DNA of 64,000 nucleotides, from contig OZ245031.1 of assembly GCA_965223975.1 (NCBI GenBank), positions 2,772,145 through 2,836,144 on the forward strand. Reading direction: 5' to 3'. Positions 1-24,734 of this stretch are shown piece after piece (position 1 is the stretch's first letter; each line of letters starts with the position of its first letter). The translations under genes were made by a program, and so were the position numbers. This stretch comes from Pseudomonadales bacterium. GTDB lineage: Bacteria; Pseudomonadota; Gammaproteobacteria; Pseudomonadales; JBECKS01. The notes under the pieces were generated by a model. It worked only from the letters and a program-made list of their open reading frames with translations, made no database searches and was not told the origin of the DNA.

Positions 1-2
1 CA

Positions 3-74
3 GTTGCGCTGGTTGTTTATTATCACTTCAACGTCGCACAAGTGCTCGATCAAATAGCAAAAGCGGTTAATTAA
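3..74 (+). CDS. 3' end of an upstream CDS entering from the window edge (C-terminus VALVVYYHFNVAQVLDQIAKAVN*). Possibly the membrane-anchor end of a TssL/DotU-type protein, judged only from its position directly before tssM
   Basis: My own translation. The frame is open from the window edge to TAA at 72-74 and the tail is hydrophobic. The function is a positional guess only. Confidence 0.3.
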   Translation, partial: VALVVYYHFNVAQVLDQIAKAVN

Positions 75-92
75 AGGTAAATAGCAAACGCC

Positions 93-3000
93 ATGTTAAA
101 AAAGTTTCTCAAATTCCTTATGTACGCTCTGATCATAGCGCTGATATCCGGCTTGGTCATAGCTGTCTTTATTCTTCTTGGTCGCCCGGTAGAACAAGCA
201 TTTATAGTGCTTGGAGCATTGTTTGGTGTCTACTTTAGTTATCTGATTGGTCGAAAGCTTTATGTCAGATGGCGAGCAAGGAGTCAGGTTAAACGAGTCA
301 TAAATGAGGGACACCCTGATGAAGAAGATGACCTTGGTATGACTCCAAAGGAGCTTATAGGTTCCCTAAAATCTGGATGGCGTAGTGCAATTGGTAGCAT
401 CAAAAAATCTAATTTGAGATTAAAAGGTGATCCTTTATACGTTCTGCCTTGGTACATGGTTATTGGTAAGCCTCGTTCCGGTAAAAGTACTGCTTTAAAA
501 AATGCCAAACTGTTATTGCCTGATATTGATATCCCTAAACAGGGTGAGGGCTCTACCTTAAACTTAGATTGGTGGTTGTATGAGCAGGCGATTGTTTTGG
601 ATACAGCCGGTCGCTATGCGGTTCCAGATAATACCAAGCGAGATAAAAAAGAGTGGGGCACTTTGTTGTCAATGCTCTCTAGGCATAAACAAAAAGAGCC
701 GATCAATGGCGTTGTCCTAGTCATCGCAGCCAATCGTCTCCTTGAAAACACAGAAGACGAGTTGATGGAAGAGGGGCGACAAGTTCGCGCTAGTATCAAT
801 GAGTTAATGGAAAAACTGGAAGTTAAAGTTCCTGTTTATTTGATGATCACTAAGTGTGATTTGATCGAAGGCTTTAAAGATTGGTCTGATTATTTGCCTG
901 AAGAGTCGACCTTGCAAGCGATGGGGCATTTGCACGAGGGCGAATTATTAAATCTCGACGCGCACCTTGACAATATTTTCGACAGTATCGTCGATAGAAT
1001 GAAGGAACTGCGTATTTTAATGCTCGAGCGCAGCCAGTCACACAATGATACCTTGTTAACCCTTCCTTCCAAGCTAGAAGGTCTACGACGCGGTTTGCAT
1101 ATTTTTATAGGAACCGCATTAAAAGAAAATCCTTACCAAGATACCCCTCGATTTCGTGGATTGTTCCTAAGCTCAAGCCAATATATCAGTGATGACAAAG
1201 GTGAATTGGAAAGCCGCGGTTTGTTCCTACATGAGTTTTTCTCACGAGTGTTACCAGCTGATCGAGACCTGTTAGACAGTTTACCGAGTGCGGAACGGTT
1301 AAGGCGTGCTGTCAGGGAGTATGCCATCAGTATTGGTGGTGGAGTCACACTATTAACTCTGGCTGTTATCAGTATTCTTTTCGGCAGAGATATGGCTACC
1401 TTAAATGACATTGCCGACTCTTATCCCGAGATAAATATCGAAAAGCAAGACGTTAACCAGCGATTGATTGAGCTTTATACCCTGCGATCACTTATTCTCG
1501 ATCTGCAAGAGGCGCAAGACGAGTGGATTATTCCTTGGTACGGCAGGCTAGGTTATACACCTCAAGTACAACAGTTAACAGCAAGTTATAATGGCTCGGT
1601 TCAGGAGATTCTCAATGAGGCTTTGGATGAACCTTTGGCTAAAAATATGATCGATTTGCAAAGTAGCACAAGCAGTATTGCCGGAGGGTTGATTCGCCGC
1701 ATTAACTTACTTTCTACCCGATTGGACCCAGAACAAGAGGAGAGTTTAGAAGACAAGCCGCCGATCTCACCAGAGTACTTGGTGAGCGTTAACGAGGAGA
1801 TTTCTCAAGAGTCGGCTGGGTACTTCCAAGAATTGTATGTCTCATACCTGCAATGGCATAACAACGAAAGTGAACTGTTAGAAGAAAGAGCTGCTCTTCA
1901 GGGTGCTTTCGTGACGCTGATTAAACGTAATCACGGTAATTACAGCTGGATTATTGACTGGGCGAATCAACAGGGCATTCAACCGGTTGTTTTAAGTGAT
2001 TTCTGGCCAGGATCAATTAAGTTAAGAGATGCTCCCGAGATTGATGCTGCCTTTACTAAGGAAGGTCGAGAGTTCCTTAATGAATTTCTTGCAGAGTTAG
2101 AAGAAGCTAATGATGATGCCAGTCGCCTTTCAATGGTTAAGTCTGATTTCGAAGAATATTATAGGCGCGAATACGTTGAGGCGTGGGTAGCCTTTGCCGA
2201 GCGTTTTGATGAAGGTAAGTTGCAGTTGCGCAATCGTAAGGAGTGGTTGACCGCAGTGGATATAATGTCCAGCAGAGAAAACCCTTACTTTACCTTTATG
2301 GGACGCATGGTTCGTGAATTAGAACCATTAGAGCATTACGATGAGCTAGAAGGCTCGGTTATGTTTGAGTTCTTTTTAGAGGTGCAAGCATTTACAGGCG
2401 CCGACGTCGACTCGGGTGGAAGTAATAAGCAAGCCGCTAAGATGGGGCTTAAGCTCCTTGGTAAAATGGGTAAGGTTGGTAAGGCGCTTGCAAAAGCCGG
2501 CAAGCAGGGCATGAAAGCCAATAAAAAACTCAACAAGGGTAAGAAGAAAGGCGGTGTCGACTTAGATTCAGGTATTGTCGATGAGGCTTCAGCTGTTTTA
2601 GATGAGTATAAAGCAGCTTTGTCTGATGCCGCATTTAATTCCGAGGCTAAGTCTCAGTCTTACAGCTCTATCAGTACTTTGTTTGAAACGCCTGATAATC
2701 CAGGTGGTGGCAATGGACCACCCGCAGCGGCTTGGAATGCGATTAAAAAAATGCAGCAGCTGACGGGTAAACCTCGGCCTAGCACGCGCTTATTTTGGCA
2801 GCTTTACTCAGGACCGCTTAGTGTCGTTCATGATTACATGGAGCAAGAGACCAACTGTCAGCTACAGGATCGCTGGGAATCTGAAGTATTGGCCGAAGTG
2901 GTCGGTGTGTCTCAGAACAAGCTGGGAGAAGTTTTGATTGGCGAAGGTGGATTGGTGTGGAACTTTGTCGAAAATACTGCTTCGCCATTCTTAAATAAAC

Positions 3001-3551
3001 GGGTAAAAACTGGGTATGTTCCAGCGACCGCAAATAAACGCCGGATCAACTGGAGCGATGACTTTTTAGGATTCCTAAATGAAGCCGCCTCTGGCCAATA
3101 CATTGTCGGTAATGAGTTTAATGTCCAAATTAACACTCTGCCAACAGGCGTCAATATAAACGCGGCTATCTCGCCTTATGCAACCTTTTTAGAGTTGCAC
3201 TGTGCCGGTGGTATTCAAACACTGTCTAACTTTAACTACTCCGACGGCTATGACTTTAAATGGTCTTTGGAAGAGTGTGGAGACGTATCTTTACAGATTG
3301 ACATCGGACCGGTCAGCCTGCGTAAACACTACCGTGGAGTTAAGGGATTTAGTAAGTTCTTAGCGGACTTCCAAGATGGGCGACGGATCTTTACCGCAGA
3401 TGAATTTCCTAACCAAGCATCACAACTTAGCAATGAAAATGTGACGGCTATTGACGTCAACTATGAAATCTTTGGGCAAGAGCCTGTTATTCAGGTTCTC
3501 AATTCGGTGCCACTTGAGCCACCGAGAAACATAGCAGCCTGTTGGCCATAA
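93..3551 (+). CDS. tssM: T6SS membrane-complex protein TssM (IcmF family)
   Basis: 1152 aa. Two N-terminal TM helices, Walker A motif VIGKPRSGKST, a third TM near residues 415-435 (AISIGGGVTLLTLAVISILFG), then a long periplasmic IcmF-type region. Lies directly upstream of the sheath, hcp and baseplate genes. Confidence 0.9.
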   Translation: MLKKFLKFLMYALIIALISGLVIAVFILLGRPVEQAFIVLGALFGVYFSYLIGRKLYVRWRARSQVKRVINEGHPDEEDDLGMTPKELIGSLKSGWRSAIGSIKKSNLRLKGDPLYVLPWYMVIGKPRSGKSTALKNAKLLLPDIDIPKQGEGSTLNLDWWLYEQAIVLDTAGRYAVPDNTKRDKKEWGTLLSMLSRHKQKEPINGVVLVIAANRLLENTEDELMEEGRQVRASINELMEKLEVKVPVYLMITKCDLIEGFKDWSDYLPEESTLQAMGHLHEGELLNLDAHLDNIFDSIVDRMKELRILMLERSQSHNDTLLTLPSKLEGLRRGLHIFIGTALKENPYQDTPRFRGLFLSSSQYISDDKGELESRGLFLHEFFSRVLPADRDLLDSLPSAERLRRAVREYAISIGGGVTLLTLAVISILFGRDMATLNDIADSYPEINIEKQDVNQRLIELYTLRSLILDLQEAQDEWIIPWYGRLGYTPQVQQLTASYNGSVQEILNEALDEPLAKNMIDLQSSTSSIAGGLIRRINLLSTRLDPEQEESLEDKPPISPEYLVSVNEEISQESAGYFQELYVSYLQWHNNESELLEERAALQGAFVTLIKRNHGNYSWIIDWANQQGIQPVVLSDFWPGSIKLRDAPEIDAAFTKEGREFLNEFLAELEEANDDASRLSMVKSDFEEYYRREYVEAWVAFAERFDEGKLQLRNRKEWLTAVDIMSSRENPYFTFMGRMVRELEPLEHYDELEGSVMFEFFLEVQAFTGADVDSGGSNKQAAKMGLKLLGKMGKVGKALAKAGKQGMKANKKLNKGKKKGGVDLDSGIVDEASAVLDEYKAALSDAAFNSEAKSQSYSSISTLFETPDNPGGGNGPPAAAWNAIKKMQQLTGKPRPSTRLFWQLYSGPLSVVHDYMEQETNCQLQDRWESEVLAEVVGVSQNKLGEVLIGEGGLVWNFVENTASPFLNKRVKTGYVPATANKRRINWSDDFLGFLNEAASGQYIVGNEFNVQINTLPTGVNINAAISPYATFLELHCAGGIQTLSNFNYSDGYDFKWSLEECGDVSLQIDIGPVSLRKHYRGVKGFSKFLADFQDGRRIFTADEFPNQASQLSNENVTAIDVNYEIFGQEPVIQVLNSVPLEPPRNIAACWP

Positions 3552-3578
3552 GAGCGGTAGTTTTTAAGAGGAAATATT

Positions 3579-5354
3579 GTGGCAGATGATGTTCAACAAT
3601 TAGAAAGAGTTCGAATGATCTACAATTCGAGCGGCCCAAATGGGGACGAAGAGGTAGAATTACCTTTTCGTATCCTTGTGTTGGGCGATTTTACGAGCAA
3701 TGAGGCCTCAGAATACCTAGACCAACAGATGCCAGAAAACATTACCGAGGGTAACTTTAATTCGGTAATGAGAAAGCTTTCACCAGAATTGAACTTACAA
3801 GTTGATAACAAGCTATCGGAAAGTTCTGATCAGCCCTTCGTTTGCGAATTTGCGTTTCATTCCCTGAACGATTTCAGCCCCGAATATTTCATTAAACAGT
3901 CACCTGAGCTGCGTATCCTATGTGAACTTCGTCAGCAACTGATTGATATACGAGCTGATAACTCAGAGGTGTCATTAGATCGTTTCTTTGGTGGCGAAGT
4001 GGGTGGCTCTGTAGCCAGTGAGTTTTTGCTCAGCATGGGCATTAACGAAGGTGAAACAATTGACGAAGTGCTGCTCGATTCAAGTACCACTGAGCTAGAC
4101 GAATGTTTAAGCCGTCAGGTGGACGCTATTCTTCATCATCCGAAATTTCAAGCACTCGAATCAGCGTGGAGAAGTTTGCACTTTTTGGTATCTAGAGTGA
4201 ACTTCGAAGAAAATATTTTGGTAGAAATTTTAAATATCTCAAAGCAAGGCTTAGCCGAAAACTTTGAAGACGTTCCCGAAACTATTCAATCTGAGCTTTA
4301 TAAGATTATTTACAGTGAAGAATTTGGTCAATTTGGAGGTCGCCCTTATAGTTGTATGGTGGCCAATTATATTTTCTCACCGTCTGCTCCCGATATTTGG
4401 CTGCTCCAACAAATAGCGAGTGTCGCGGCCATGTCTCATTCGCCTTTTCTAGCGGCTGCTGGCCCTGAGTTTTTTGATATCGACAGTTTTTCTGGGCTCG
4501 CACGCTTACGCGATTTATCAGCAAACTTTGAGCAGCCTCGATTTGCTAAATGGAATAGCTTCCGAGAGAGTGAAGATGCACGTTACGTTTCCTTGTCTTT
4601 GCCAGGCTTTAAGCTTAGGAGTGATTATGGAAGCGATGGTAATCGAATCGGTGTCTTTGACTACCAAGAAAGAACATCCAAGAAAACCAAAGGTCTTTGG
4701 GGAAACGCGGCATTTGCATTCTGTTCTCGGCTAGTTGATAGCTTTGCTAAAACCCGCTGGTGCGTAAATGTGGTGGGTAAAGAGTATGGCAAGGTCGAAG
4801 GGCTACATATGTCCGAAGGTGGTGGCACAGCCACCTCAGATCGAAAAATTCCGACAGAGATATTAATTTCTGACAAGCGCGAAACGGAATTGGTTCGTTG
4901 GGGCTTTGTGCCTCTAACGGTCCATAAAGGCGATGATAGCGCGGCTTTTTACTCAGCGAACTCTGTTCAAGCTATTAAAGAGTTTCCAGATACGCCAGCT
5001 GGAAAGCAGTCTGCTATGAATCACCATTTGGGGTCGCAACTATCCTATTTATTTATTATTTCCAGATTGTCTCATTACATAAAAATGATGCAGAGAGAGC
5101 ATATAGGGTCTTGGAAAAATCGACATGACATCGAGCGTGAGTTGAGCGATTGGATTCGTCAGTATGTTGCAGACATGGATAACCCGACAGCGGGTGTTAG
5201 AGCACGTAGACCTTTAAGACATGCCAAAATTGCTGTTGAAGAGATAGAGGGTAAGGCAGGTTGGTACTTGATCGCCATGGCCGTTACGCCACACCTTAAG
5301 TACATGGGTTCTTACTTTACCTTAAAAGAAACTGGAAAGTTGGACAAAAATTAA
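3579..5354 (+). CDS. tssBC: T6SS contractile sheath protein, an apparent single-chain TssB-TssC fusion
   Basis: 591 aa, GTG start preceded by AAGAGG. Residues 1-125 follow the TssB/VipA pattern (ERVRMIYNSSGPNGDEEVELPFRILVLGDFTS; NFNSVMRKL; FHSLNDFSPEYFIKQSPELRILCELRQQL). Residues ~175-591 follow the TssC/VipB pattern (QVDAILHHPKFQALESAWRSLHFLV, then about 400 aa). The ORF is uninterrupted. Confidence 0.85.
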   Translation: MADDVQQLERVRMIYNSSGPNGDEEVELPFRILVLGDFTSNEASEYLDQQMPENITEGNFNSVMRKLSPELNLQVDNKLSESSDQPFVCEFAFHSLNDFSPEYFIKQSPELRILCELRQQLIDIRADNSEVSLDRFFGGEVGGSVASEFLLSMGINEGETIDEVLLDSSTTELDECLSRQVDAILHHPKFQALESAWRSLHFLVSRVNFEENILVEILNISKQGLAENFEDVPETIQSELYKIIYSEEFGQFGGRPYSCMVANYIFSPSAPDIWLLQQIASVAAMSHSPFLAAAGPEFFDIDSFSGLARLRDLSANFEQPRFAKWNSFRESEDARYVSLSLPGFKLRSDYGSDGNRIGVFDYQERTSKKTKGLWGNAAFAFCSRLVDSFAKTRWCVNVVGKEYGKVEGLHMSEGGGTATSDRKIPTEILISDKRETELVRWGFVPLTVHKGDDSAAFYSANSVQAIKEFPDTPAGKQSAMNHHLGSQLSYLFIISRLSHYIKMMQREHIGSWKNRHDIERELSDWIRQYVADMDNPTAGVRARRPLRHAKIAVEEIEGKAGWYLIAMAVTPHLKYMGSYFTLKETGKLDKN

Positions 5355-9102: not shown

Positions 9103-12039
9103 ATGAGTTATTTAGAAACTGCTAATTCCGCTAAATTCAGTTTGATTATTGAAGGGGTTTCAGAAACGCTCGGCTTGATCAGTTTTACTGGGCAAACAGC
9201 CATATCTTCCCTCTATTATTTTGATTTAATGTTGGTCAGCGACAACGAGGATTTAGAAGATCTCCCTGGATTATTTACCAGTAACGTCAGCATGATCTTT
9301 CACAAGGCGGAGGCTGATAAAGAGCACGAAGTTCACGGTGTGTTTTCAGAATTCGAGCAAATTAAGCAAACCCAATACGATGGTCGTAACTACACCTTAT
9401 ATAAGGCGAGAATGGTTCCTAAGCTATGGTGGCTGACTTTAAGTAAACGCAACCAGGTTTTTTTAGAAAAGTCCGTACCAGACATAATGACTGAAATTTT
9501 AGAAGACAGCGATTTAGCTTCTTCAGATTTTAACATGGCTGAGCTAGGGTCTTATGAGGACAACGATTACGTATGCCAGTTTAATGAAAGTCACTTTGAT
9601 TTTATTTCAAGATGGATGGAGCGAGAGGGCATTTATTACTATTTTGATCATGAGGCCGAAACCGAGCAGGTGATTTTTGTCGATACCTTGTCTTCACATG
9701 ACGAACCCTTTGATAAAGAGATTGCCTATAAGCCAGATCGTGACCTTAGTGATACAACCAAGAGCCGCTTTATCCAGACCTTTACTGGGCGACAAAAACA
9801 ATTGCCTCAAATGGTCTATCTCAAAGATTATAACCCCGAGCGTCCTTCACTCTACGTTGAGGCCTCAGCGACCGTAGATGAGATGGGGCGGGGTGAAGTA
9901 TATCTGTATGGTGATCACTTCGCCGATCCGGAAGAGGGTTCGCGTTTAGCGTTTATTCGAGCTGAACAAATGCTATCTGAGCAAAAGGAATTTTTTGGAG
10001 AAAGCACAGCAAGTGCGTTAGCTCCCGGATATATTTTTACTCTCGGGCGTCACTATCGAGACTCTTACAATGCTAAATACCTGGTAACTGAAGTAAGCCA
10101 TGAAGGGTCACAGGCTTCATGTATAAAGAGCGATATATTAACAGGGCTTGGACTTTCAGTAGAAGATGTACCGTATTCCAATAGTTTTAAGGCGATACCC
10201 GCCGACACCCAGTTTAGACCTAGGCAAAGCATTGAGCGGCCAAGAATTTCAGGCACATTAAATGCTAAAATTGATGCCGAAGGTGATGGTGCCATGGCCG
10301 AAGTCGATGAGTACGGGCGGTATAAAGTTAAACTACCTTTCACACAAACCGATGATATCCTAGACGGCAAGGCCTCAGCATGGCTTCGCATGATTCAACC
10401 TCACGCAGGCGAAAATCAAGGTATGCAATTTCCCTTAAGGAAAGGTACTGATGTGGTTGTGTCTTTTATAGATGGTCATCCAGATAGGCCAATTATTGCC
10501 GGCGCTGTAAATAACCCAGAAACCCCAGGGGTTGTTACTGCTGAAAACCATAATGTTGGATTTATAGCGACCGAAGACTTATTAGCTACCCGAGCCCTAG
10601 GTGGAGCACACCGTGATGTTGCTTCCAAAGGTCCTAGCTTTGACGGTGTTACTCCTTATGATGATTTTCGTCGCAATCATCAAACCAATTTTAGTGATGA
10701 CGATTGGCAGTTTCCAAAGCTCGACCCCATAGGCAAGGGCGCCGTTACACCGGGCGGTGATTACAATGCGCTTGAAGGTTTTATTGCGAATAACGCCGCT
10801 CCCGATAACGACGGTATTCCGGGCGAATATAGTGGCCAGTATCTGATTAAACGCGAATACGGTGATCAGTATTGTTGGGGAGATGGCAAAGTCTATAGCT
10901 GGGATAATCAACTGGCATTTACCTACGGTAATGATTATGAAGAAATTCACGAAATTGATGACCCTGAAACCGGTGAAGGATACAAACAACGTTTGCCACT
11001 AACCGTCGATGAGTCTGATAAGGATAGCGTTCTTAATGTAAATAATTTTGATCCAACGGGTCGTGAGGGGCATGACGGATATGATGATATTCATTACCCC
11101 GAATCCGTGTATGGAGTAGCTTATAACTCATTTAACGATGGTGAACCCTGGGAAGATGGAGGGAATGGCCTAACGGAAAAAAACTGGGGTGATAAAGTTG
11201 AATTCCATATGGGGCGTAGTTTTAATTTCAGTGGTGGTCCAGGGCCTGGCGGTTCCAATGAGGCTTACAACTATGGTAATGGCTACAGCGAGGACTTGTT
11301 AGAAAAAACCTACGGTAACTTCGCTCAACATTATGGCGATACTCGTCATGACCGAATATTTGCAGCTACTGCTCCAGTGACAATTAATGTCGGTATAGCT
11401 TCAATGTCTAAAGCAGCCGGTCATAGCTATTCCTATACACGCGGCGTTAGTTATGACGTGGTAGAGGATTTGGATGCGTATTCAGAAACCTATGGCGGTA
11501 CCAGCGAAGACTACGTTTATACTTCGATGGGTATACCCCGTTCCAAAACTGTTGAAAAGAACGATATGGGCATGACTGAAGAGACTATTTATGACGTCAC
11601 CTCAGGTATTCCTGTTTCATTTTCTACCGAATCTACCTCTGGCGGAGCTACTGCAAGCTTTAAAACCTCTATGGGTGCGGTTGCTGAGCTAGAAACTCGT
11701 CTAGCTGCAACCTCAACTACTGAAGTAAATGTCGGCGCAGTAATGAATATTGTGGCTAATGCTGGTGCATTCATGGATGTGTCGAGTACTTTAGGAGCCA
11801 TGGTAGAAGTTGGCACACATGTTGTTCACATCGAGGTGGATTCTGCACTGGGTGTAGAAATGAAATTTCCAGGTATGAAGGTGGCTCAAGACCCATTGGT
11901 TAAATTGGAGAATACCATTACAGCTATTCAAGCTGCGACTTGTACCATATCTTCTGAGTTAGCTGCGGTGGTCGCCAATGGTGTCGAAGTGACCACCACG
12001 CCGATTCAATTGAATACAGGAATGGATATCACCGTATGA
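9103..12039 (+). CDS. vgrG: T6SS spike protein VgrG (TssI) with an atypical long region after the gp5 OB-fold
   Basis: 978 aa. gp27-like N-terminal two-thirds and a gp5-like OB-fold (RYKVKLPFTQTDD...ASAWLRMIQPHAGENQGMQFPLRKGTDVVVSFIDGHPDRPIIAGAVNNPETP, ending near residue 475). Then ~330 aa rich in G/D/Y/N/E. Then ~170 aa with short beta-helix-like periodicity (EVNVGAVMNIVANAGAFMDVSSTLGAMVEVGTHVVHIEVDSALGVEM). Confidence 0.9.
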   Translation: MSYLETANSAKFSLIIEGVSETLGLISFTGQTAISSLYYFDLMLVSDNEDLEDLPGLFTSNVSMIFHKAEADKEHEVHGVFSEFEQIKQTQYDGRNYTLYKARMVPKLWWLTLSKRNQVFLEKSVPDIMTEILEDSDLASSDFNMAELGSYEDNDYVCQFNESHFDFISRWMEREGIYYYFDHEAETEQVIFVDTLSSHDEPFDKEIAYKPDRDLSDTTKSRFIQTFTGRQKQLPQMVYLKDYNPERPSLYVEASATVDEMGRGEVYLYGDHFADPEEGSRLAFIRAEQMLSEQKEFFGESTASALAPGYIFTLGRHYRDSYNAKYLVTEVSHEGSQASCIKSDILTGLGLSVEDVPYSNSFKAIPADTQFRPRQSIERPRISGTLNAKIDAEGDGAMAEVDEYGRYKVKLPFTQTDDILDGKASAWLRMIQPHAGENQGMQFPLRKGTDVVVSFIDGHPDRPIIAGAVNNPETPGVVTAENHNVGFIATEDLLATRALGGAHRDVASKGPSFDGVTPYDDFRRNHQTNFSDDDWQFPKLDPIGKGAVTPGGDYNALEGFIANNAAPDNDGIPGEYSGQYLIKREYGDQYCWGDGKVYSWDNQLAFTYGNDYEEIHEIDDPETGEGYKQRLPLTVDESDKDSVLNVNNFDPTGREGHDGYDDIHYPESVYGVAYNSFNDGEPWEDGGNGLTEKNWGDKVEFHMGRSFNFSGGPGPGGSNEAYNYGNGYSEDLLEKTYGNFAQHYGDTRHDRIFAATAPVTINVGIASMSKAAGHSYSYTRGVSYDVVEDLDAYSETYGGTSEDYVYTSMGIPRSKTVEKNDMGMTEETIYDVTSGIPVSFSTESTSGGATASFKTSMGAVAELETRLAATSTTEVNVGAVMNIVANAGAFMDVSSTLGAMVEVGTHVVHIEVDSALGVEMKFPGMKVAQDPLVKLENTITAIQAATCTISSELAAVVANGVEVTTTPIQLNTGMDITV

Positions 12040-14885
12040 TCGATGTCATCGCGCCTATGCAGATACTGCCGATGAAAACGGTGGTAGAGCGGGACAATAC
12101 CTTCCATTTAATTATGTCTGCTACGCTGGGCATTGATTTAAGTAATAACAATGCGCTGCTTTCTTTTGACTACATAAAAGATGCTTTAGAGAGCATGGAT
12201 AGGCCGCCGATGCTGGATATGGGTATGCCTAAACCACACGGTGAATTTATGGTTTCCGGTAAATTCTTTGCCCCAAACCAGCAGGCAGTAGACGCTGGTG
12301 AGGTCAAAGTATGTATCGGTGACCAGCAAAAAAGTCTCTATGTATTTGGCCCTCGCTCTTGGCAAGCTGGGTTTCCTTCGAAACCTGAACCCATCGAGTC
12401 CTTACTTCTAGATTATCAGTTCGCGATGGGCGGCGATAACTACCCAGAAAACCCAGAGGGCATGGGGTATGAGCAGGAGCAGCTGCCTCAAATTGAATAC
12501 CCTAATCAGCTAGTAGATTCGCCAAAAGCACAAGTCTCACCGGCGGGCTTAAGTGCCATCGATATTACCAACCCCCAGCGCGCACAATATCATGGAACCT
12601 ATGACGGCCAGTATTTAGAGAAATATTTCCCCGGCTATCCTGCAGATATGGATTGGCGAATGTTTATGTGTACGCCACCTGATCAATGGTCAAAGGGATT
12701 TTATAATGGTGATGAGAAATTTTCCTTACATAATATGCATCCAAACGAAGCACTTATCGAGGGCCAATTACCATCATTGAAAACACGCTGTTTTCTCCGC
12801 AGCAAGCCCGGTGTGGCGCAACAGTCTAATATTCAAGAAATCCCCATGAACCTCGATACTGTGTGGTTTTTTCCAGAAGTCAAAATTGCTTTATTGATTG
12901 CTCGGGGTGGTATTGAAATAAATGACGATGAAGGAGATGACTTCGATACCGTACTGTTTGCGTATGAACGACACGATGAGGTTCGCAGTCCTGATTATTA
13001 TAAAGAGGCGATGGACCTTCGCTTGGATACCAAGGATCGATTGCTTTATAACCTCTGCACTCATGACCTAATTCCAAGCGATCATAAGTCAGCTATGGAG
13101 ACCCTACAATTGATGGGGGAAGAATCAGCTGATAATAGTGAATTCTCGAAAAACCTAGCCCATAAAACGGAGTCCATCCAAAATGAGGTGGATGAAAAGG
13201 TAGAAAAGGCTCTTAAACAAAGCGAAGAGCAAATGGCAGCGGCAAATATCGGTGAAGAACATAAACCGGATATTCGGGCAATCCTTAAGGAACCTAAAAC
13301 CGATCCCGAAATTGAGGCATTAAATGCCAAACTAGAGAAAATATTGCCCGGTATAACTGGTAAAGATGGCAAGAGCTTGGAGTTAAAAAACCTAACCAGC
13401 GCAAAGATTGAAGAGGTCATTCAGACCAGTAAAGAATTCTCTGATAAAAAAAATGAAGAAGCTCAACAAATGATAAGGGAAGAGCTTCTTAAGATTCGTC
13501 AGGAGCTGAAAGACCAGTTGAAGATGGAATTGCCAGAGGAAAGCAAAAAATCCCTGGAGCAGGCACTTACAGTCATAGAAGGTATGCTAGAAAGTGAGCC
13601 GCCTCCTACAGAGTTGCCAAGAGTTGATTCTCAAGCTTTAATTGATCGTTTTCAGCAAGCATCTCCAGAGAGTATGCAGTACATGCAGCAAATTGCCTTG
13701 ATGCGGGCCTCGGGTGGAGATGAAAAAGCCATTTCGGTGCTCGAAAAGCAATTAAAAGATCTCGAGGACTTTAAAGAGAATGAAATGAAAACGGCGCTAA
13801 TAGAGGCCGAAAAAACCTTTAAGGATGGATATTTAAAGGGCGCTCATTATACAGCTAAAGGGCTATCTCCCCACGAAGATGACGCAACGGTGCGTGGCCA
13901 GCTGATAAAAAAAATTAGTTTGAGAGAGGATGTCAGTCAACAAGACTGGGCTTGTTTAGACTTAAGTGCTCAAGATTTAGCTGGAGTGGATTTTAGCGGT
14001 TGTTATTTGGAACAAGTTGATTTTAGCGGAGCCGACCTAAGCGGAGCAAATTTTAGCCAAGCAAACCTAGCAAGAGCTAAGCTAGAAAATGCAAATTGTA
14101 TCGGCGCCAATTTTGAGGGTGCCAATCTGGGCGCAGTATTAGGAAACGGTTGTAACTTTACAGACGCGACTCTTCACGAGGCGCAACTCAATTTAAGCGA
14201 TTTTCAGAATTCAAACTTTACGCGAGCGAAACTTGATCTGGCGTTAATCCTAGAGATTAATGTAGACGGCGCGAATTTTAGCGAGGCCCAATTAGAAAAA
14301 GTACAGTTCTTAGATATCGAATTGAATGATGTTGATTTCTCAAATGCTAATCTTGTTAGTGCAGTGTTTATTAATTGCATAATTAACCGGGTCAATTTTA
14401 GCGGAGCTAAAGCATCTAGCACTATATGGACCAATATTCCTTTTACTGATGTTAAGTTTGATGATGCTGATATTACCTCAGCGTGCTTTGCACCCTCTGA
14501 AGAAGGCAAGACTTCGATGGAGTCGGTTAGTTTAGTAAGAGCTATAATGGACAAGAGTAATTTCCAGGGGATGCCCATGCAGTCGTGTGACCTGACTGAA
14601 GCGTCAATGGAAAATGCAATAATGATGGAAGCTGATTTAAAAGGCGCAAATCTTACTGGCATTAAGGCGAAGGGCGCATCTTTTCGAAAAGCATCTTTAG
14701 AAAATGCTCTTTTAAAAAACGCCGACCTAAGGGATGGTATTCTTTCTAAAGCGAATTTGGTGGGCGCTAATTTTGTGGGCGCTAATTTGTTTAGAGCCGA
14801 TCTAATCCGATCTTCTATGAAAAACACCGATTTTCTTGCAAGTAACCTTGATGCCACCCTGATTAAAGACTGGAGGCCCTCATGA
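12036..14885 (+). CDS. DUF2169-like N-terminal domain + Glu/Lys-rich coiled-coil + pentapeptide-repeat C-terminal domain (TagAB-like T6SS accessory protein)
   Basis: 949 aa. The ATG overlaps the vgrG stop (ATGA). The first ~330 aa resemble the DUF2169 proteins found after vgrG genes. Residues ~340-620 are EK-rich and helical. From nt ~13950 there are tandem A(D/N)LxX pentapeptide repeats (DFSGADLSGANFSQANLARAKLENANCIGANFEGANLGAV...). Confidence 0.8.
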   Translation: MIDVIAPMQILPMKTVVERDNTFHLIMSATLGIDLSNNNALLSFDYIKDALESMDRPPMLDMGMPKPHGEFMVSGKFFAPNQQAVDAGEVKVCIGDQQKSLYVFGPRSWQAGFPSKPEPIESLLLDYQFAMGGDNYPENPEGMGYEQEQLPQIEYPNQLVDSPKAQVSPAGLSAIDITNPQRAQYHGTYDGQYLEKYFPGYPADMDWRMFMCTPPDQWSKGFYNGDEKFSLHNMHPNEALIEGQLPSLKTRCFLRSKPGVAQQSNIQEIPMNLDTVWFFPEVKIALLIARGGIEINDDEGDDFDTVLFAYERHDEVRSPDYYKEAMDLRLDTKDRLLYNLCTHDLIPSDHKSAMETLQLMGEESADNSEFSKNLAHKTESIQNEVDEKVEKALKQSEEQMAAANIGEEHKPDIRAILKEPKTDPEIEALNAKLEKILPGITGKDGKSLELKNLTSAKIEEVIQTSKEFSDKKNEEAQQMIREELLKIRQELKDQLKMELPEESKKSLEQALTVIEGMLESEPPPTELPRVDSQALIDRFQQASPESMQYMQQIALMRASGGDEKAISVLEKQLKDLEDFKENEMKTALIEAEKTFKDGYLKGAHYTAKGLSPHEDDATVRGQLIKKISLREDVSQQDWACLDLSAQDLAGVDFSGCYLEQVDFSGADLSGANFSQANLARAKLENANCIGANFEGANLGAVLGNGCNFTDATLHEAQLNLSDFQNSNFTRAKLDLALILEINVDGANFSEAQLEKVQFLDIELNDVDFSNANLVSAVFINCIINRVNFSGAKASSTIWTNIPFTDVKFDDADITSACFAPSEEGKTSMESVSLVRAIMDKSNFQGMPMQSCDLTEASMENAIMMEADLKGANLTGIKAKGASFRKASLENALLKNADLRDGILSKANLVGANFVGANLFRADLIRSSMKNTDFLASNLDATLIKDWRPS

Positions 14886-15934
14886 ATAGTGCTGAGCTTT
14901 CAAGGCTGGTTAAAACGGGGGAACTGTTTAGTGGCAATGACTTCTCAGGCCTGGATTGCCGAGAGGTTGATCTGTCGGGCGCGGTGTTTTCTGAGGTCAA
15001 CTTTGATCGATGCGATTTTTCAGCTGCGAATTTGGTCGACGCGACATTTAACATGTGCAGTATCAAAGGAGCTGTGTTCGATAATAGTCAGCTTAAATCG
15101 GCTAATTTTGTTGGCTGTCAGGGGGCGGAAAGCAGTTTTGATCAAGCCGACTTAGAAAAAACTAAGTTCGTTCAGTCTGAATTGATCGATGCTCGATTTT
15201 CTAATACTCGCTTGATCCAGACAACCTTTGTTGAGTCGAATCTGTGCCGTATAGATTTAAGTGATAGCTACATTGAAGCGGCTCCATTTACAGACTCAGA
15301 TCTTACCGGTATCCAATTTAAGCAAACTGAATGCGTCAAAGTGGTATTCTATCAATGTCTTTTCAAAGATATCGATTTGTCACAGTGCCGTTTTGAGCTT
15401 TGCGGCTTTATAAAATCGGATTTAAGTGGTTTGGATTTTTCTGGCTTGGATTTGTGCCAGAGTCAATTCATCGAAAGCCAGGTAAAAGCCTGCGACTTTT
15501 CAAACTGTGAATTAAAACAAGGTGGGTTTATGGCTGCCGATTTGGAGTCGTCAAACTTTGACAATACAAACCTTGAAACAGCTAACTTTTATGAGGCGAA
15601 TCTAACCAAAGCTAGTATGAAAAACGCGAACTTAACAATGGCTAGCCTGCAGAAAGCTACTATCGATTTTGCTAATTTGGCATGGGCGAAGTTAGAAAGG
15701 GCGCAAATGGAAGAAGTTAAAATAAATGTATCAATTTTTTCTAATGTTGATTTGACCTACGCTGATTTATCGCATGCAAGAATTATTGATAGTGATTTTT
15801 CTGGTGCTTCAATGAGCAATACTAATATGCATGAAGTACTAGAGGATAAAAATATTTGGGACGGCGCAACCAAGCCCTTGTCTTGGCCAACCGATGAAGA
15901 GAGAAAAAAAGCAGAAACCTGGGGTGCGAAATGA
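14882..15934 (+). CDS. Pentapeptide-repeat protein (TagB-like)
   Basis: 350 aa, almost entirely pentapeptide repeats (DLSGAVFSEVNFDRCDFSAANLVDATFNMCSIKGAVFDNSQLKSANF...). ATGA overlap with the upstream gene. Confidence 0.85.
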   Translation: MNSAELSRLVKTGELFSGNDFSGLDCREVDLSGAVFSEVNFDRCDFSAANLVDATFNMCSIKGAVFDNSQLKSANFVGCQGAESSFDQADLEKTKFVQSELIDARFSNTRLIQTTFVESNLCRIDLSDSYIEAAPFTDSDLTGIQFKQTECVKVVFYQCLFKDIDLSQCRFELCGFIKSDLSGLDFSGLDLCQSQFIESQVKACDFSNCELKQGGFMAADLESSNFDNTNLETANFYEANLTKASMKNANLTMASLQKATIDFANLAWAKLERAQMEEVKINVSIFSNVDLTYADLSHARIIDSDFSGASMSNTNMHEVLEDKNIWDGATKPLSWPTDEERKKAETWGAK

Positions 15935-18750: not shown

Positions 18751-19012
18751 GGGACACCTTCCTTTACGCTCGCTTTAGAGCAGCTCATTATTATTTTATC
18801 TGCAACAGTTAAGTATACTAACGTGTTTAGTTGAATAGGCACAACTCCAAGTAGCCATGTATTGCAGCTACCTCTGCATCAATAAGCTAACCCTAGTTTG
18901 TAGAGGCTTACGAACCGCCACAATCAGCCCTAGAGGATCATCTGAACGTCGATCTATGGGTAACACGATGTTATAGTGCTTGAGTATCATTATATTTAGT
19001 AAGGTTTTTAAA

Positions 19013-19831
19013 ATGAATGACAGTCGAACCTGGATAGCCTCTATTCTATTCCTAGATATTGTGGGCTATAGCAAGCTCCCGATAGACCACCAAGTAGAGA
19101 TCAAAAACCACTTCTTGCAGGCAATCTCAAAGAATACAGAAGGTGTAGCGTTTGAAGAAAGTATTCGAATTGATACGGGTGATGGCATGGCTATCTGCTC
19201 GGTAGGTGATCCCGAGTCTATGTTTCCTGTCGCTAAAGATCTTTGCCACTTTTTCTTTCAGGGCGATCCTAATTTCCCTCATGATTACGGGGTAAGGCTT
19301 GGTCTAAACCTTGGGCCCATTAAGCTTGTAGAAGATATTAATGGCAAAAAGAACTGCCTGGGGGCTGGTATTAATGACGCTCAGCGTGTGATGGATTTTG
19401 CCGCTAGCAACCAATTGCTCGTATCGGAGTCTTATTACGAAGTGGTATCTAAAATTTCCAATAGTTACGCTGAAGACCTTTTGTTGCTAGGAAAGCGTTT
19501 TGATAAGCACGACAAGGAATTTATGGTGTACAGCTTTAAACATGGCGCGCAAGAAGAGCTGCAAGAACCTAGTGAACAACCCCTAAATGCTTCGTTAGGA
19601 GAAGTATCCGACGCAAGTTTTGAGATAGATAGTGGTGTAGAAGATCATTTGAAGAAACAGCTTGCTAGCTGTATCGGTTCTTCAAAAGCTGACGAAGTAT
19701 TTAATCTTTGTAAAAGTAAGAGCAGTTCGTTGAAAGATCTTTGTGATCAGCTTAGCGCAAGTATAGAGCGTTCGGATGATCGAGATAGTTTTGATCAGTT
19801 CACTAAATCTTACGGTTATTCAGGCTACTAG
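19013..19831 (+). CDS. Class III adenylate/guanylate cyclase catalytic-domain protein with an uncharacterised ~90-aa C-terminal tail
   Basis: Cyclase motifs ILFLDIVGYSKL (metal Asp), IRIDTGDGMAIC (second metal Asp), RLGLNLGPIKLV and LGAGINDAQRV (Asn/Arg). The ORF track starts at TTG 18980. I prefer the in-frame ATG at 19013 (MNDSRTWIASILFLDIVGYS). Confidence 0.8.
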   Translation: MNDSRTWIASILFLDIVGYSKLPIDHQVEIKNHFLQAISKNTEGVAFEESIRIDTGDGMAICSVGDPESMFPVAKDLCHFFFQGDPNFPHDYGVRLGLNLGPIKLVEDINGKKNCLGAGINDAQRVMDFAASNQLLVSESYYEVVSKISNSYAEDLLLLGKRFDKHDKEFMVYSFKHGAQEELQEPSEQPLNASLGEVSDASFEIDSGVEDHLKKQLASCIGSSKADEVFNLCKSKSSSLKDLCDQLSASIERSDDRDSFDQFTKSYGYSGY

Positions 19832-20905: not shown

Positions 20906-22732
20906 TTATTGATATAAAACTAGGCTTAAATCACAGCCTCCAAATTCATTTTGGGACCAGGATATATCGGCGCCTATTTCTTCCGCTCTATACCTCATGT
21001 TAGAAGTACCGGTTCCTCTATCCAAAACTTCTTTGAATTGGCTGCCGTTGTCTTTTAGGAGAATTTCGATTTGATTCTCTTGGACGTTTATATCTAGGAA
21101 AACCTTTGTTGCATCACTGTGTTTTATTGAGTTGGTTAGTCCCTCTCGAATGATTCGTGACAGGTGATAGCCAAGGTTGGGAATGGAGCGCTCTAATAGT
21201 ACTTGGTTTTTTACAATGAGATTTGTTTCAGGTTCAATATGGGCAGTAGTGCACCTGATTTGGGTCTCTTCAAATATTTGTTCAATTATTTTTGAAAGTG
21301 TGGAACTTGTGTTTTTAACTTGCGAAGCCGACTCGCGTAGGTACTCTAGCGCTGATTTGGCTAAGCCCTTGCTGGCTTCCTCATCCTCGGAGTGTAATAT
21401 GGATACGAGCTTTGAACCGACATCGTCGTGAAGATCTTTATAAATTCTTTGTTTCTCTAAGTTTTCAGCTTCCCTGATTTCATATTCTCTTTTTTCGATG
21501 TAGCTTTTTTCTAGTTCTTGTTTATTTTGGGCAACTTTCTCTTCCAGGTGCTTGTTTAAGTATTCAGAATCGGCAAGGGACTTTAAAAATTTATTGATTA
21601 AAAATGCTAAGAAAATAACGACATAGACTGGAATAAGATATCTGGTATAGGTCTCTGTATGATATACGGACTTTCCAAACGATCCTTGGGTGTGGTTAAG
21701 TATATCAATAGAAAGGGTGATGATTACTAAGCCAAGGGCAGAGAGTATCCAGATCCGATGGTTTTGAAACTCTCGTATGTTTTTAAGATAGAAGATAAAG
21801 GTAAAACACAAAGCGAGTATTTTTATTAAAAATATAGCGGGAATGGCCTTTAGAATGAATGAGCTAGGTGATAATAGGATAAAACAGCTGTTGAACGCGG
21901 TAAGAATCATTAGCAACTTGGCAAGTCCCGACAGTCTAAGTTTAAGCCCTAAGTTGGCAAGTATGAATAATAAAAGCGCCGACAGGTCTACACAGATCGT
22001 GGCTAATTTAAAGTAGTATTCGTTACTGAAGGGGGCGTATGAAAAGTACCGCGTGCTCAAGGGCAGGACCCAAGCAGCTGTGAATATTGCGAATACTAGA
22101 TACTCACGCTCTGCTCTGCGGTAGTTCCAAATAAACATTGAGATCATCGAGGCAACTATCGAAACCACAATAGAAATTAGGGCGAACTGTTTGCTGAAGA
22201 GCTTGTGATACTCCCAGGTTGATCTAAATGTTTCGGCATCGCCTAAGTAAAACTGATGCAACAAAGTGGTTGGTATGCCACTGCTTAGGCGTAGAAGAAT
22301 TTCATTGTTACCTGCATTCCAATCGCTTTCGCGTAAATAGATAACCAAAGGTTGATGCCAGCCTGTAGCTTGTTTCCCCAAAGGGGCATGTGTTCCGCCC
22401 ACATGATTGCCATTGAAATATACTTGAAGATCAAATTGAAATTTTGGGAAATATAGTGCCAGCTTTCTGCTTGAGTCTTGCTGGATAAAGATGTGCTTGA
22501 ACCAATAATATTGAGCTTGATCCTCAACGGAATCGTTATTGATCTGAAAGGGGAGGGTGGTGGGTCGCCAAGTCGTATCGTGGCCTGTCAGGAAAGCAGC
22601 GTCGCTTTCTGTCATCAATACATCATTGAATGTCATTGTCGCTGGAGTTGATTTTTGTTCCCCGGATGCAATGATAAAAGTTGATGTTAGAATAAGTTGA
22701 CCAACGATGATGAGTGTTATTAGTATTTTCAT
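20906..22732 (-). CDS. 7TMR-DISM-type sensor histidine kinase (NarL/HisKA_3 class)
   Basis: 608 aa. Signal/TM segment, ~150-aa periplasmic domain, about 7 TM helices, a coiled coil, H-box YKDLHDDVGSKLVSIL, and ATPase motifs REGLTNSIKHSDA, LKDNGSQF, GTGTSNMRYRAEEIGADI. Confidence 0.85.
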   Translation of the reverse strand: MKILITLIIVGQLILTSTFIIASGEQKSTPATMTFNDVLMTESDAAFLTGHDTTWRPTTLPFQINNDSVEDQAQYYWFKHIFIQQDSSRKLALYFPKFQFDLQVYFNGNHVGGTHAPLGKQATGWHQPLVIYLRESDWNAGNNEILLRLSSGIPTTLLHQFYLGDAETFRSTWEYHKLFSKQFALISIVVSIVASMISMFIWNYRRAEREYLVFAIFTAAWVLPLSTRYFSYAPFSNEYYFKLATICVDLSALLLFILANLGLKLRLSGLAKLLMILTAFNSCFILLSPSSFILKAIPAIFLIKILALCFTFIFYLKNIREFQNHRIWILSALGLVIITLSIDILNHTQGSFGKSVYHTETYTRYLIPVYVVIFLAFLINKFLKSLADSEYLNKHLEEKVAQNKQELEKSYIEKREYEIREAENLEKQRIYKDLHDDVGSKLVSILHSEDEEASKGLAKSALEYLRESASQVKNTSSTLSKIIEQIFEETQIRCTTAHIEPETNLIVKNQVLLERSIPNLGYHLSRIIREGLTNSIKHSDATKVFLDINVQENQIEILLKDNGSQFKEVLDRGTGTSNMRYRAEEIGADISWSQNEFGGCDLSLVLYQ

Positions 22733-23416: not shown

Positions 23417-23543
23417 CCTTTTAGTTACAAAATAGCTCCCAAAATACCCGAGTTCTCGGGATACCTAAGTACCAAACGATTCAATATATTTGCTTAAGAA
23501 GTTCTTTTGTCACCGATACAACAAAAAGACCGGAGCTATACCT

Positions 23544-24734
23544 ATGAGTCCTCGACGTTTCATAACCCGCTTAATGGTTATTTCAAGTTTAGTGTTTGCA
23601 TCCCATACCCAGGCTTCTGATCTGGATATTAACGCTATTACCGATGGTTTGGTGCCCAAGGCTTATTCAGCAAATTCGGGTAAAAAGAAAGGGGTTATCG
23701 GTAATATTCGGGGTCACAAAGGTGAGTACTTTGATCGCGACCAGTTCAATAGAGCATTTAGAGAAGGGGCAAGTTCAGCGAACGATGTTGGTTTACCTTT
23801 GGCGAATGGGCGGGAGCTTAAAACTTTAGCTGGATATAAAGAGGCGAGCCTAGATGGGGCTGTGAGCGCTTGGCAATTCTCTATATATGGATGGGATGAG
23901 GATAAGAGTCCGGACACAAATGGCAATATTCAGATTCACCAGGCTGGTGGTGCTATGGCGAACTATGGAAATCGCTATGAGTATGTATTTTTCTTGCCAG
24001 ATATTCCTCAGGAGTTTGTTGATCAAGTAGAAGAAAAGCTTAAAAAATCTAAAAAGTCTCACTCGAAGATATCTAAAGGCGTTGAAGTGAGTTTTCCGCG
24101 CACCGACAGTGGACAGTTATCAGTTAAAGCCACTTTTCAATATAACAAGAAAACCTCTACTGGAAAATTAAAAAAGCAGGTGTCTACTCTCTTGTTAGAA
24201 TCACGAAGTATGTTTAATCGTTATCTGAGTGAGACTCGTCATGTTAAACGGCGATATCTAAATGGAATGCGAAAAACCAAGCATGCCAATCTCGATAAAG
24301 AACAGTTTTTTGAGGTGTTTACGGCACTTTCATTTATCAATAATTTGTCCACTTGGGACACGCCGTCAGAAGAAACCGATCATGGATATGCCGCTTTTGA
24401 TTTCAAGAATAGATCGATTCGGTTTTGGAATTATAAAGATAGTTTTGCGGTGGGTGTTGGTGTCCCCTTTGACAGCTCTTTGAGCGAGGCACAACAAAAG
24501 AAGTTAAAGGAGGGTTGGCTTAAGTGGGGGCAAAAGAAACTTAAGAAAGGTGCCAAATCTGTAACAGTGAAGGATAACGTTCACAATAACTATCGTACCT
24601 TAGTGATGACGGTGACTTACCCACTTGACGGATCACTTAAGGGCAAGCAAATAGAAAAATATATTGATGTTATGCTGCGAGATAAGCGAGAAGACATTGT
24701 TAAAAGTTATAATAAGATAAAGAAGAAACTGTAA
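23544..24734 (+). CDS. Secreted Lys-rich hypothetical protein
   Basis: I prefer ATG 23544 (MSPRRFITRLMVISSLVFASHTQA|SD, a clear signal peptide) over the track start TTG 23490. I recognise no family. Followed by a strong terminator. Confidence 0.7.
   Translation: MSPRRFITRLMVISSLVFASHTQASDLDINAITDGLVPKAYSANSGKKKGVIGNIRGHKGEYFDRDQFNRAFREGASSANDVGLPLANGRELKTLAGYKEASLDGAVSAWQFSIYGWDEDKSPDTNGNIQIHQAGGAMANYGNRYEYVFFLPDIPQEFVDQVEEKLKKSKKSHSKISKGVEVSFPRTDSGQLSVKATFQYNKKTSTGKLKKQVSTLLLESRSMFNRYLSETRHVKRRYLNGMRKTKHANLDKEQFFEVFTALSFINNLSTWDTPSEETDHGYAAFDFKNRSIRFWNYKDSFAVGVGVPFDSSLSEAQQKKLKEGWLKWGQKKLKKGAKSVTVKDNVHNNYRTLVMTVTYPLDGSLKGKQIEKYIDVMLRDKREDIVKSYNKIKKKL

Follow-up and report, generated by a model that had tools for sequence, protein, structure and literature searches.

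A probable Class III Tvp spike-assembly module containing two pentapeptide-repeat proteins in a type VI secretion locus of a Pseudomonadales bacterium

Organization of the vgrG-PAAR module

The window analyzed here is a whole stretch of 64,000 nucleotides from contig OZ245031.1 of a Pseudomonadales bacterium (positions below are counted from its first letter), and it carries a type VI secretion system (T6SS) locus in which a vgrG gene is followed by genes for two large pentapeptide-repeat proteins (PRPs) of 949 and 350 amino acids (aa). An initial annotation of this DNA had considered the two proteins to be the best candidates for the cargo of the secretion system. We believe that they are very probably the TvpAB and TvpB proteins of a Class III Tvp accessory system, that is, assembly chaperones rather than cargo. 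The genes of the module are the following:

9103-12039, + strand: vgrG, 978 aa, with a gp27/gp5 core (residues 1-~490), a variable insert, distal beta-strand repeats and a hydrophobic tail
12036-14885, + strand: tvpAB-like gene (DUF2169, helical and pentapeptide parts), 949 aa
14882-15934, + strand: tvpB-like gene (pentapeptide), 350 aa
15931-16608, + strand: tvpC-like gene (DUF3540), 225 aa
16618-17028, + strand: gene for a PAAR-like (DUF4150/PIPY-type) spike tip, 136 aa
17053-17349, + strand: DUF3467-like sixth gene, 98 aa

The gaps between these genes are, in order, -4, -4, -4, 9 and 24 nt, which excludes space for a hidden gene in the module. No toxin or immunity gene of the classical type was found in the vgrG-PAAR operon by open reading frame (ORF) map and Pfam.

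The Class III Tvp set consists of TvpAB, TvpB, TvpC and Paar1 (Monlezun, Earl & Coulthurst, EMBO J 2026, PMC13373197). It is the same organization as the tagAB/tagB/tagC/tagD genes of Burkholderia and as synteny type C of the DUF2169 genes, which combines a multidomain DUF2169-PRP, a PRP gene, DUF3540, DUF4150 and vgrG and accounts for ~37% of DUF2169 genes (Sachar 2025, PMC11883445). The window has a DUF2169 domain with a fused C-terminal PRP domain, a separate PRP encoded downstream, a DUF3540 protein, a small effector-less PAAR protein and an upstream vgrG; since this gene content and order match the published definition, we assign the module to Class III. The cognate VgrG is the 978-aa protein, for which a single long prism is not implied, its residues 497-780 being unmodellable.

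A plasmid module of identical organization from Escherichia albertii was compared with the window as a proxy, in place of the Serratia marcescens and Burkholderia sequences:

VgrG: 744 aa in E. albertii, 978 aa in the window; homologous over residues 1-~490 only
TvpAB: 846 aa in E. albertii, 949 aa in the window; 27% identity, E=4e-83, nearly full length and collinear
TvpB: 356 aa in E. albertii, 350 aa in the window; 27% identity, E=9e-37, end to end
TvpC (DUF3540): 201 aa in E. albertii, 225 aa in the window; 28% identity, E=1e-20
PAAR-like (DUF4150): 130 aa in E. albertii, 136 aa in the window; 55% identity, E=1e-43

Some variation on this organization was encountered among the relatives. 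In Ca. Electrothrix scaldis (CP138355; positions 1-4650 of locus L003) a second, partial unit lies upstream of the six-gene module and encodes DUF3540, a PAAR-like protein, another DUF3540, a 902-aa VgrG and a 258-aa protein without a Pfam match, with no TvpAB or TvpB, an arrangement suggesting that a common set of chaperones may serve alternative tips. Plasmid p2 of Caballeronia grimmiae (L008, 1-8508) has the permuted order TvpB-TvpC-PAAR-VgrG-TvpAB, and the module of a Syntrophaceae metagenome-assembled genome (MAG; L001, 9944-17490) encodes a TvpAB of 1264 aa and has a second VgrG-like ORF after the PAAR gene.

Domain architecture of the TvpAB-like protein

The 949-aa protein was modelled by AlphaFold2 (AF2) with 46 family members as input, at a mean predicted local distance difference test score (pLDDT) of 84. 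Three parts are delimited by the model and by Pfam:

12036-12971, + strand (residues 1-312): DUF2169 domain, beta-rich in the AF2 model; Pfam PF09937 at residues 48-290
12990-13919, + strand (residues 319-628): segmented helical, EK-rich region (AF2)
13941-14855, + strand (residues 636-940): pentapeptide beta-helix (AF2 and Pfam)

The match to DUF2169 (PF09937, residues 48-290) has an E-value of 3.7e-64 and scores 217 bits against a cut-off of 25, and the Pentapeptide families of Pfam cover residues ~644-940, toward the C-terminus, at E=2e-45. The domain calls of the initial annotation, for which a Pfam profile assignment had been set beforehand as the check, are thereby upheld at both ends of the protein. 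The DUF2169 domain also matches PDB 8vth, a solved DUF2169 chaperone of a PAAR-like protein, both in sequence (E=4.3e-13) and in fold (8vth_A, E=3.5e-18, template modelling (TM) score 0.76 in Foldseek against the PDB). The pentapeptide helix is regular, with ~60 repeats and a pLDDT of 93-97.

The segment between the two domains had been described as a coiled coil of ~280 aa. Its EK-rich and all-helical character is borne out (residues 361-640 contain 15% E, 12% K and 10% L), but AF2 predicts segmented helices and not one continuous coil: at least eight separate helices of 8-43 residues each, with pLDDT values of 46-80, lie within residues 319-628, the longest ones being 369-402, 455-495 and 563-605. 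On this model, the "coiled coil" appears to be the segmented helical region that is typical of TvpAB. In the model for Serratia, the alpha-helices of TvpAB surround the TvpC prism and the pentapeptide-repeat (PPR) domains wrap the tip (PMC13373197). The Class III TvpAB proteins that we retrieved, of 846-1264 aa, have an identical three-part layout, and the long helical linker is thus not an unusual addition.

The TvpAB family includes 145 full-length relatives, mostly of 930-1010 aa among the 120 listed, and the nearest is ~46% identical to the window protein; the few that are named among the matches listed come mostly from Desulfobacterota and other environmental MAGs. In all 46 aligned members the pentapeptide domain is 305-315 aa long (exactly 310 in most), and the helical region measures 328-402 aa in the same alignment. 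The idea of a "molecular ruler", by which the length of the TvpAB helical region would track that of TvpC, was rejected: TvpC has 219-221 aa in five relatives while TvpAB has 944-994 aa.

Two observations concern the DNA of this gene. The AT skew of the window has its maximum of +0.139 at 12001-14000 (elsewhere it ranges roughly from -0.15 to +0.11) and coincides there with the purine-rich Glu/Lys codons of the linker. An antisense ORF of 217 aa (14204-14857, - strand) lies wholly inside the pentapeptide coding region and is most likely a shadow ORF that arises from the repetitive, codon-biased sequence, not a gene.

The TvpB-, TvpC- and PAAR-like proteins

The second PRP had been characterized as an all-pentapeptide protein of 350 aa, and Pfam agrees, in that it consists almost entirely of repeats (Pentapeptide families at ~16-318, E=1e-45) with a short non-repeat tail at the C-terminus. 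In the relatives examined it always measures 350-357 aa. A recent paralogous origin of the two pentapeptide domains was considered and rejected, because they are only ~24% identical and align in several registers, as expected of similarity at the level of the repeat. The 225-aa protein is DUF3540 (PF12059, E=5.2e-40). The 136-aa PAAR-like protein matches Tox-PAAR-like over residues 11-120 (E=1.6e-29), carries no effector domain and has no room for an extra one; its 'PIPAPYP' corresponds to 'PIPYP' in the E. albertii protein.

Gene overlaps and co-expression

The starts of three consecutive genes had been reported to overlap the preceding stops as ATGA, and direct reading at each position finds them there:

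12036-12039, + strand: ATGA, vgrG stop and tvpAB start, a 4-nt overlap with TGA; not conserved in relatives
14882-14885, + strand: ATGA, tvpAB stop and tvpB start, with GGAGG 5 nt upstream
15931-15934, + strand: ATGA, tvpB stop and tvpC start

Between tvpAB and tvpB the spacing is -4 nt in the window, as it is in four of the six close relatives and, at a greater distance, in the modules of Syntrophaceae, SAR324 and E. albertii. Between tvpB and tvpC, each of the six close relatives has a spacing of -4 or -1 nt. Across phyla, these two overlaps (-4 or -1 nt) are kept in nearly all relatives, with one exception of +2. The spacing of vgrG and tvpAB varies from -1 to +112 nt among the six close relatives. 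Tight coupling is thus conserved among the chaperone genes themselves, rather than between vgrG and them.

Promoter-like and terminator-like sites inside the module are no more numerous than in shuffled sequence, which agrees with transcription of the vgrG-PAAR module as a single unit. The overlaps make it plausible, as originally proposed, that the two proteins are co-expressed with the spike genes. The further claim that the overlaps imply a tight stoichiometry with VgrG does not follow, for coupling does not imply equal (1:1) amounts and the published model has TvpC and VgrG as trimers. The Serratia model names TvpAB, TvpB and Paar1 each in the singular (PMC13373197), which we read as one copy of each.

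Conservation across the module

Mean identities of the window to six syntenic relatives were determined for each segment:

PAAR-like protein: 54%
DUF2169 domain: 47%
Sixth gene product: 45%
TvpAB pentapeptide domain: 44%
VgrG core (1-490): 42%
TvpB: 41%
TvpAB helical region: 36%
TvpC: 35%
VgrG residues 497-978: 20-23%

Judged by these values, the pentapeptide proteins evolve like the spike core, and the fast-evolving part is the C-terminal half of VgrG. Invariant length together with core-like identity is as expected of parts that fit a fixed geometry. The same pair of TvpAB and TvpB, moreover, accompanies VgrGs of ~650 to 1250 aa that have unrelated C-terminal halves.

Homologous systems and a proposed role in spike assembly

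Functional evidence comes from the homologous systems. In S. marcescens, killing that depends on VgrG1 requires each of the three Tvp genes and paar1, and in the absence of VgrG2 the secretion of Hcp, too, requires TvpAB, TvpB, TvpC and Paar1 each. These four proteins assemble into a pre-complex on the TvpC trimer; by the published definition TvpC is a structural mimic of the OB-fold and beta-prism of VgrG, and VgrG1 later replaces it. The secretion of TvpAB and TvpB was never detected in Serratia (all PMC13373197). TagA/B-5 of Burkholderia pseudomallei is indispensable to the secretion of Hcp-5, 'but not as an effector' (PMC6335564). Sheath assembly in Burkholderia depends on TagB, TagC and TagD (PMC13584744). 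In Burkholderia glumae, the DUF2169 domain, the PRP domain and the downstream PRP protein are all needed for T6SS-dependent virulence (PMC8747328). The conservation pattern and these experiments on homologues together strongly favor a chaperone or cap over a diversifying payload.

By analogy with S. marcescens, the Tvp proteins of the window would act at the spike tip as chaperones of its assembly and as space-fillers. The PAAR-like protein would sit on a trimer of TvpC (DUF3540), which serves as a short stand-in for the tip of VgrG; the helices of TvpAB would pack along the prism while its pentapeptide beta-helix wraps the tip, and TvpB would close the wrap like a seat belt. The real VgrG of the baseplate would then receive the capped pre-complex, and the Tvp proteins would be released, undelivered, before or at firing. 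For the window we infer the complex, the handover from TvpC to VgrG and the non-secretion from the Serratia system; what is established here is the homology and collinearity of five genes, the three-domain architecture of TvpAB, the conservation of the PRPs and the gene overlaps.

Several points weigh against this reading. The window proteins are just ~27% identical to their enterobacterial counterparts, a value measured on the E. albertii proxy and not on S. marcescens itself. No similarity between TvpC and VgrG was found by BLASTP or by hhalign of the DUF3540 family against the VgrG family. The non-secretion of the Tvp proteins is a negative proteomic result from one organism, and the extra conserved DUF3467-like gene and the different VgrG C-terminus of this clade mean that details of the mechanism may differ.

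VgrG and its C-terminal half

The VgrG protein matches Phage_GPD (E=6.7e-68) and Phage_base_V in Pfam and the TssI/VgrG model of NCBIfam (325.8 bits against a cut-off of 186), and its residues 1-490 were modelled confidently by AF2. Two segments lie beyond this core:

10591-11442, + strand (residues 497-780): VgrG insert, acidic, G/D/Y/N-rich and hypervariable
11443-12036, + strand (residues 781-978): distal part, with beta-strand repeats at 781-930 and a tail at 931-978

The insert lies between the OB-fold of VgrG and the distal beta-strand repeats. AF2 gave no model for it (pLDDT ~28, without secondary structure), its isoelectric point (pI) is 4.47 and its grand average of hydropathy (GRAVY) is -0.95. 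It has no Pfam or PHROG match, and relaxed Pfam and PDB searches were likewise uninformative. An exhaustive search of 1.84 billion representative proteins recovered 30 relatives of the insert, most of them at equivalent positions in proteins of 800-1000 aa and most matching its last ~110 residues only; one metagenomic VgrG, P0122, is 43% identical over residues ~565-978. The mean identity of residues 497-780 to the six syntenic relatives is 23%.

Residues 781-930 are modelled as regular short beta strands (pLDDT 60-84) and are likely to form a distal beta-prism that carries the PAAR-like tip; the confidence for 931-978 is low. The distal part is partially similar to P0217 and can be aligned to the C-terminus of the Electrothrix VgrG at 27% identity. 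The last 48 residues (931-978; 11893-12036, + strand) are hydrophobic and T/V/A/I/L-rich, with a GRAVY of +0.64. This tail resembles the hydrophobic C-terminus of S. marcescens VgrG1, whose last 26 residues were suggested as a possible cryptic membrane-active peptide (PMC13373197).

The nomination of the pentapeptide proteins as cargo had rested on the premise that the operon contains no other candidate effector. This overlooks the ~490-residue C-terminal extension of VgrG, which is the sole hypervariable part of the module. Precedents for VgrG itself being the payload in Class III systems are provided by S. marcescens VgrG1, with its intrinsic toxicity (PMC13373197), and by Burkholderia VgrG-5, in which the C-terminal domain is a functional payload (PMC6335564). 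The C-terminal half of VgrG, through either its insert or its tail, would appear to be a better payload candidate than the pentapeptide proteins, and residues 497-780 are a candidate for a payload or for a region that confers specificity. Neither the insert nor the tail yielded a toxin domain, and there is no immunity-like gene in the module.

The DUF3467-like sixth gene

An orthologue of the sixth gene lies directly after the PAAR-like gene in all seven modules of the close clade. Apart from the window, these come from Ca. Electrothrix scaldis, a MAG of the Chitinispirillaceae and four other contigs of metagenomic or MAG origin. Three of the seven are orphan vgrG islands with housekeeping genes on either side, and in one the TvpAB has an identity of just 34%. 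Four Class III modules at a greater distance were also examined and lack the gene. The orthologues are mutually 40-63% identical, and all seven match PF11950 (DUF3467) at E<=0.01, with a best value of 3.6e-7; with 21.6 bits (E=2.3e-4) the 98-aa protein of the window falls short of the gathering threshold, which is 25 bits, and the Electrothrix orthologue exceeds it with 25.9.

The sixth protein has no transmembrane-like hydrophobic stretch and no solved relative in the PDB, and PHROGs and relaxed Pfam searches were uninformative. In the searchable literature DUF3467 was met in a single paper on an unrelated subject, and no T6SS literature on it was found. The protein is probably an additional cytoplasmic component of this Class III variant.

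A more elaborate reading of the module keeps the pentapeptide proteins as chaperones and regards the system as a six-component variant of Class III, in which the DUF3467-like protein is an obligatory, undescribed subunit and the VgrG insert is the delivered payload. The lineage that would possess this variant includes the window genome, Ca. Electrothrix, the Chitinispirillaceae MAG and several metagenomic genomes. We hold this reading to be tentative, a possibility with slightly poorer prospects than those of its failing. Were it correct, the sixth protein might aid the handover from TvpC to VgrG or act as a chaperone for the variable C-terminal half of VgrG.

Other roles considered for the pentapeptide proteins

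The pentapeptide proteins might alternatively be inactive structural extensions of the spike that stay on the VgrG-PAAR tip and leave the cell with it, a role that we consider unlikely. Its appeal lies in the published model, in which the tip is enclosed, the baseplate cavity is filled and the release ahead of firing is a prediction based on a lack of detection in secretomes, and also in the dimensions of the proteins, since ~60 repeats per helix would form ~15 coils of roughly 70 Å by our estimate, similar to the 81 Å of the TvpC prism (PMC13373197). A tip enclosed by ~1300 residues would, however, be blunt; in Serratia no such secretion was detected (PMC13373197), and other T6SS chaperones (DUF4123, DUF1795 and single-domain DUF2169) are not secreted.

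The proposal of the initial annotation, by which the pentapeptide proteins would be secreted cargo or effectors on VgrG and act in the target cell like PipB2 or the N-terminal domains of NleL and SopA, fares still worse and must now be viewed as very improbable. Pentapeptide domains do occur in translocated effectors of type III secretion systems, there is sub-threshold similarity to the PipB2, PipB and SopA models of NCBIfam, NleL is among the Foldseek matches, and the operon lacks a classical toxin or immunity gene. The similarity is at the level of the repeat only, with 91 and 64 bits for PipB2 against a cut-off of 354 and 83.5 and 74.5 bits for PipB against 274 (NCBIfam). Hcp secretion and sheath assembly, and with them firing itself, depend on homologues of the two proteins; this is the phenotype of an apparatus component or chaperone rather than of cargo. 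TvpAB and TvpB of Serratia have never been found in secretomes (PMC13373197). Their invariant length and core-like conservation are unlike the diversifying C-terminus of VgrG, and the same pair accompanies VgrGs with unrelated C-termini. A pure adaptor role in loading VgrG and PAAR, which the annotation itself had named as the outcome that would speak against cargo, is what the homologous systems show.

That the proteins are DNA mimics of the Qnr, MfpA or AlbG type, protecting their own topoisomerases or inhibiting the gyrase of a target, is hardly credible: the common right-handed quadrilateral beta-helix, the PDB matches that include QnrB1, MfpA and AlbG and the acidity of both pentapeptide parts (pI 4.4) are outweighed by Qnr and MfpA model scores of 49-81 bits overall against cut-offs of 240-500 (67.8 and 81.3 against 240 for Qnr, 49 and 65 against 360 for MfpA; NCBIfam), by PDB alignments in several registers with Foldseek TM scores of 0.2-0.5 (generic repeat similarity), by helices that are ~50% longer (~310 aa against 180-220 aa in Qnr-type chains), by the fact that all proteins of the operon except the PAAR-like one are acidic, so that charge is uninformative, and by a strict genomic linkage to VgrG, DUF3540 and PAAR and not to a topoisomerase poison.

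Implications

A new class of T6SS cargo consisting of pentapeptide proteins would have mattered, but the evidence points the other way, and the main value of the analysis is a correct annotation of the locus as a divergent Class III Tvp spike-assembly module. It extends a system defined in Serratia and Burkholderia to a poorly studied lineage that spans several phyla. The DUF3467-like gene could be a new accessory subunit, which would give an uncharacterized Pfam family its first functional context. The combination of a constant set of chaperones and tip with a hypervariable VgrG insert suggests a site for lineage-specific payloads in effector-less Class III systems, where the location of the payload is a question left by the Serratia study (PMC13373197).

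Surroundings of the module

Upstream of vgrG the locus encodes TssM, a fused TssB-TssC, Hcp, TssE, TssF and TssG. The apparent sheath fusion is one ORF of 591 aa (3579-5354, + strand) with matches to T6SS_VipA (TssB) at residues 8-126, VipB (TssC) at 170-464 and VipB_2 at 479-587. VipA and VipB are also both matched by the single 488-aa product of a related locus (L012, 15416-16882), and the fusion may be a trait of this T6SS lineage. Downstream of the module there is a convergent gene for a CLC channel, followed by housekeeping genes, which places the end of the T6SS locus at ~17.35 kb.

Several ORFs near the locus, of 283-597 aa, have no Pfam match at the thresholds used:

18980-19831
23490-24734
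25520-27019
32929-34419
35363-37156

An ORF of 608 aa at 20906-22732 has a weak match to HATPase_c only. No tRNA genes were found in the window.

Comparison with known systems

The closest described counterpart, that of S. marcescens Db10, shares the five-gene order downstream of vgrG, and its VgrG likewise has a long C-terminal extension with a hydrophobic extreme C-terminus. The two systems differ in several respects. Serratia has a vai1-like (DUF3192) immunity gene, whereas in the window there is no gene between vgrG and tvpAB; the VgrG extension of the window, of ~490 residues, includes an unmodellable insert of ~285 aa, whereas that of S. marcescens is one continuous prism; and Serratia possesses an alternative VgrG2 pathway, whereas the VgrG of the window is apparently the sole one in the visible locus. 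The TvpAB of the window is ~100 aa longer in the helical region than that of E. albertii, and the DUF3467-like sixth gene sets the window apart from both the Serratia and the Burkholderia systems.

The T6SS-5 of B. pseudomallei and B. thailandensis (Shalom 2007; Hopf 2014; reviewed in PMC6335564) shares the vgrG-tagAB-tagB-tagC-tagD block, which is located in the T6SS cluster after tssE-tssF-tssG, as well as a VgrG of ~1000 aa and a PAAR-like protein of ~130 aa without an effector domain. The window differs from it in having no clpV between tssG and vgrG and in its TssB-TssC fusion sheath. In B. glumae BGR1, bglu_2g07420 and bglu_2g07410 (PMC8747328) encode a DUF2169+PRP protein and then a PRP protein in a T6SS cluster; that study is one of phenotypes only, and the likeness is drawn from its description of the genes.

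The single-domain DUF2169 chaperones (Vibrio VP1398, the 8vth structure, PMC11883445; Agrobacterium tumefaciens Tap2/Atu3641; Pseudomonas aeruginosa PA0097) have the DUF2169 fold in common with the TvpAB-like protein, and the initial annotation was correct in recognizing DUF2169 as an adaptor associated with VgrG and PAAR. By homology with these chaperones, the DUF2169 domain of the window would bind and shield the DUF4150/PIPY PAAR-like domain. The single-domain chaperones are, however, without a helical region, a pentapeptide domain or a TvpB or DUF3540 partner, and they serve toxin-linked PAAR-like domains, in fusions of Class I/II (synteny types A and B). Finally, Qnr, MfpA, AlbG and the effectors of the PipB2 type share the right-handed beta-helix with the pentapeptide proteins of the window but differ from them in size, fusion partner and genomic context.

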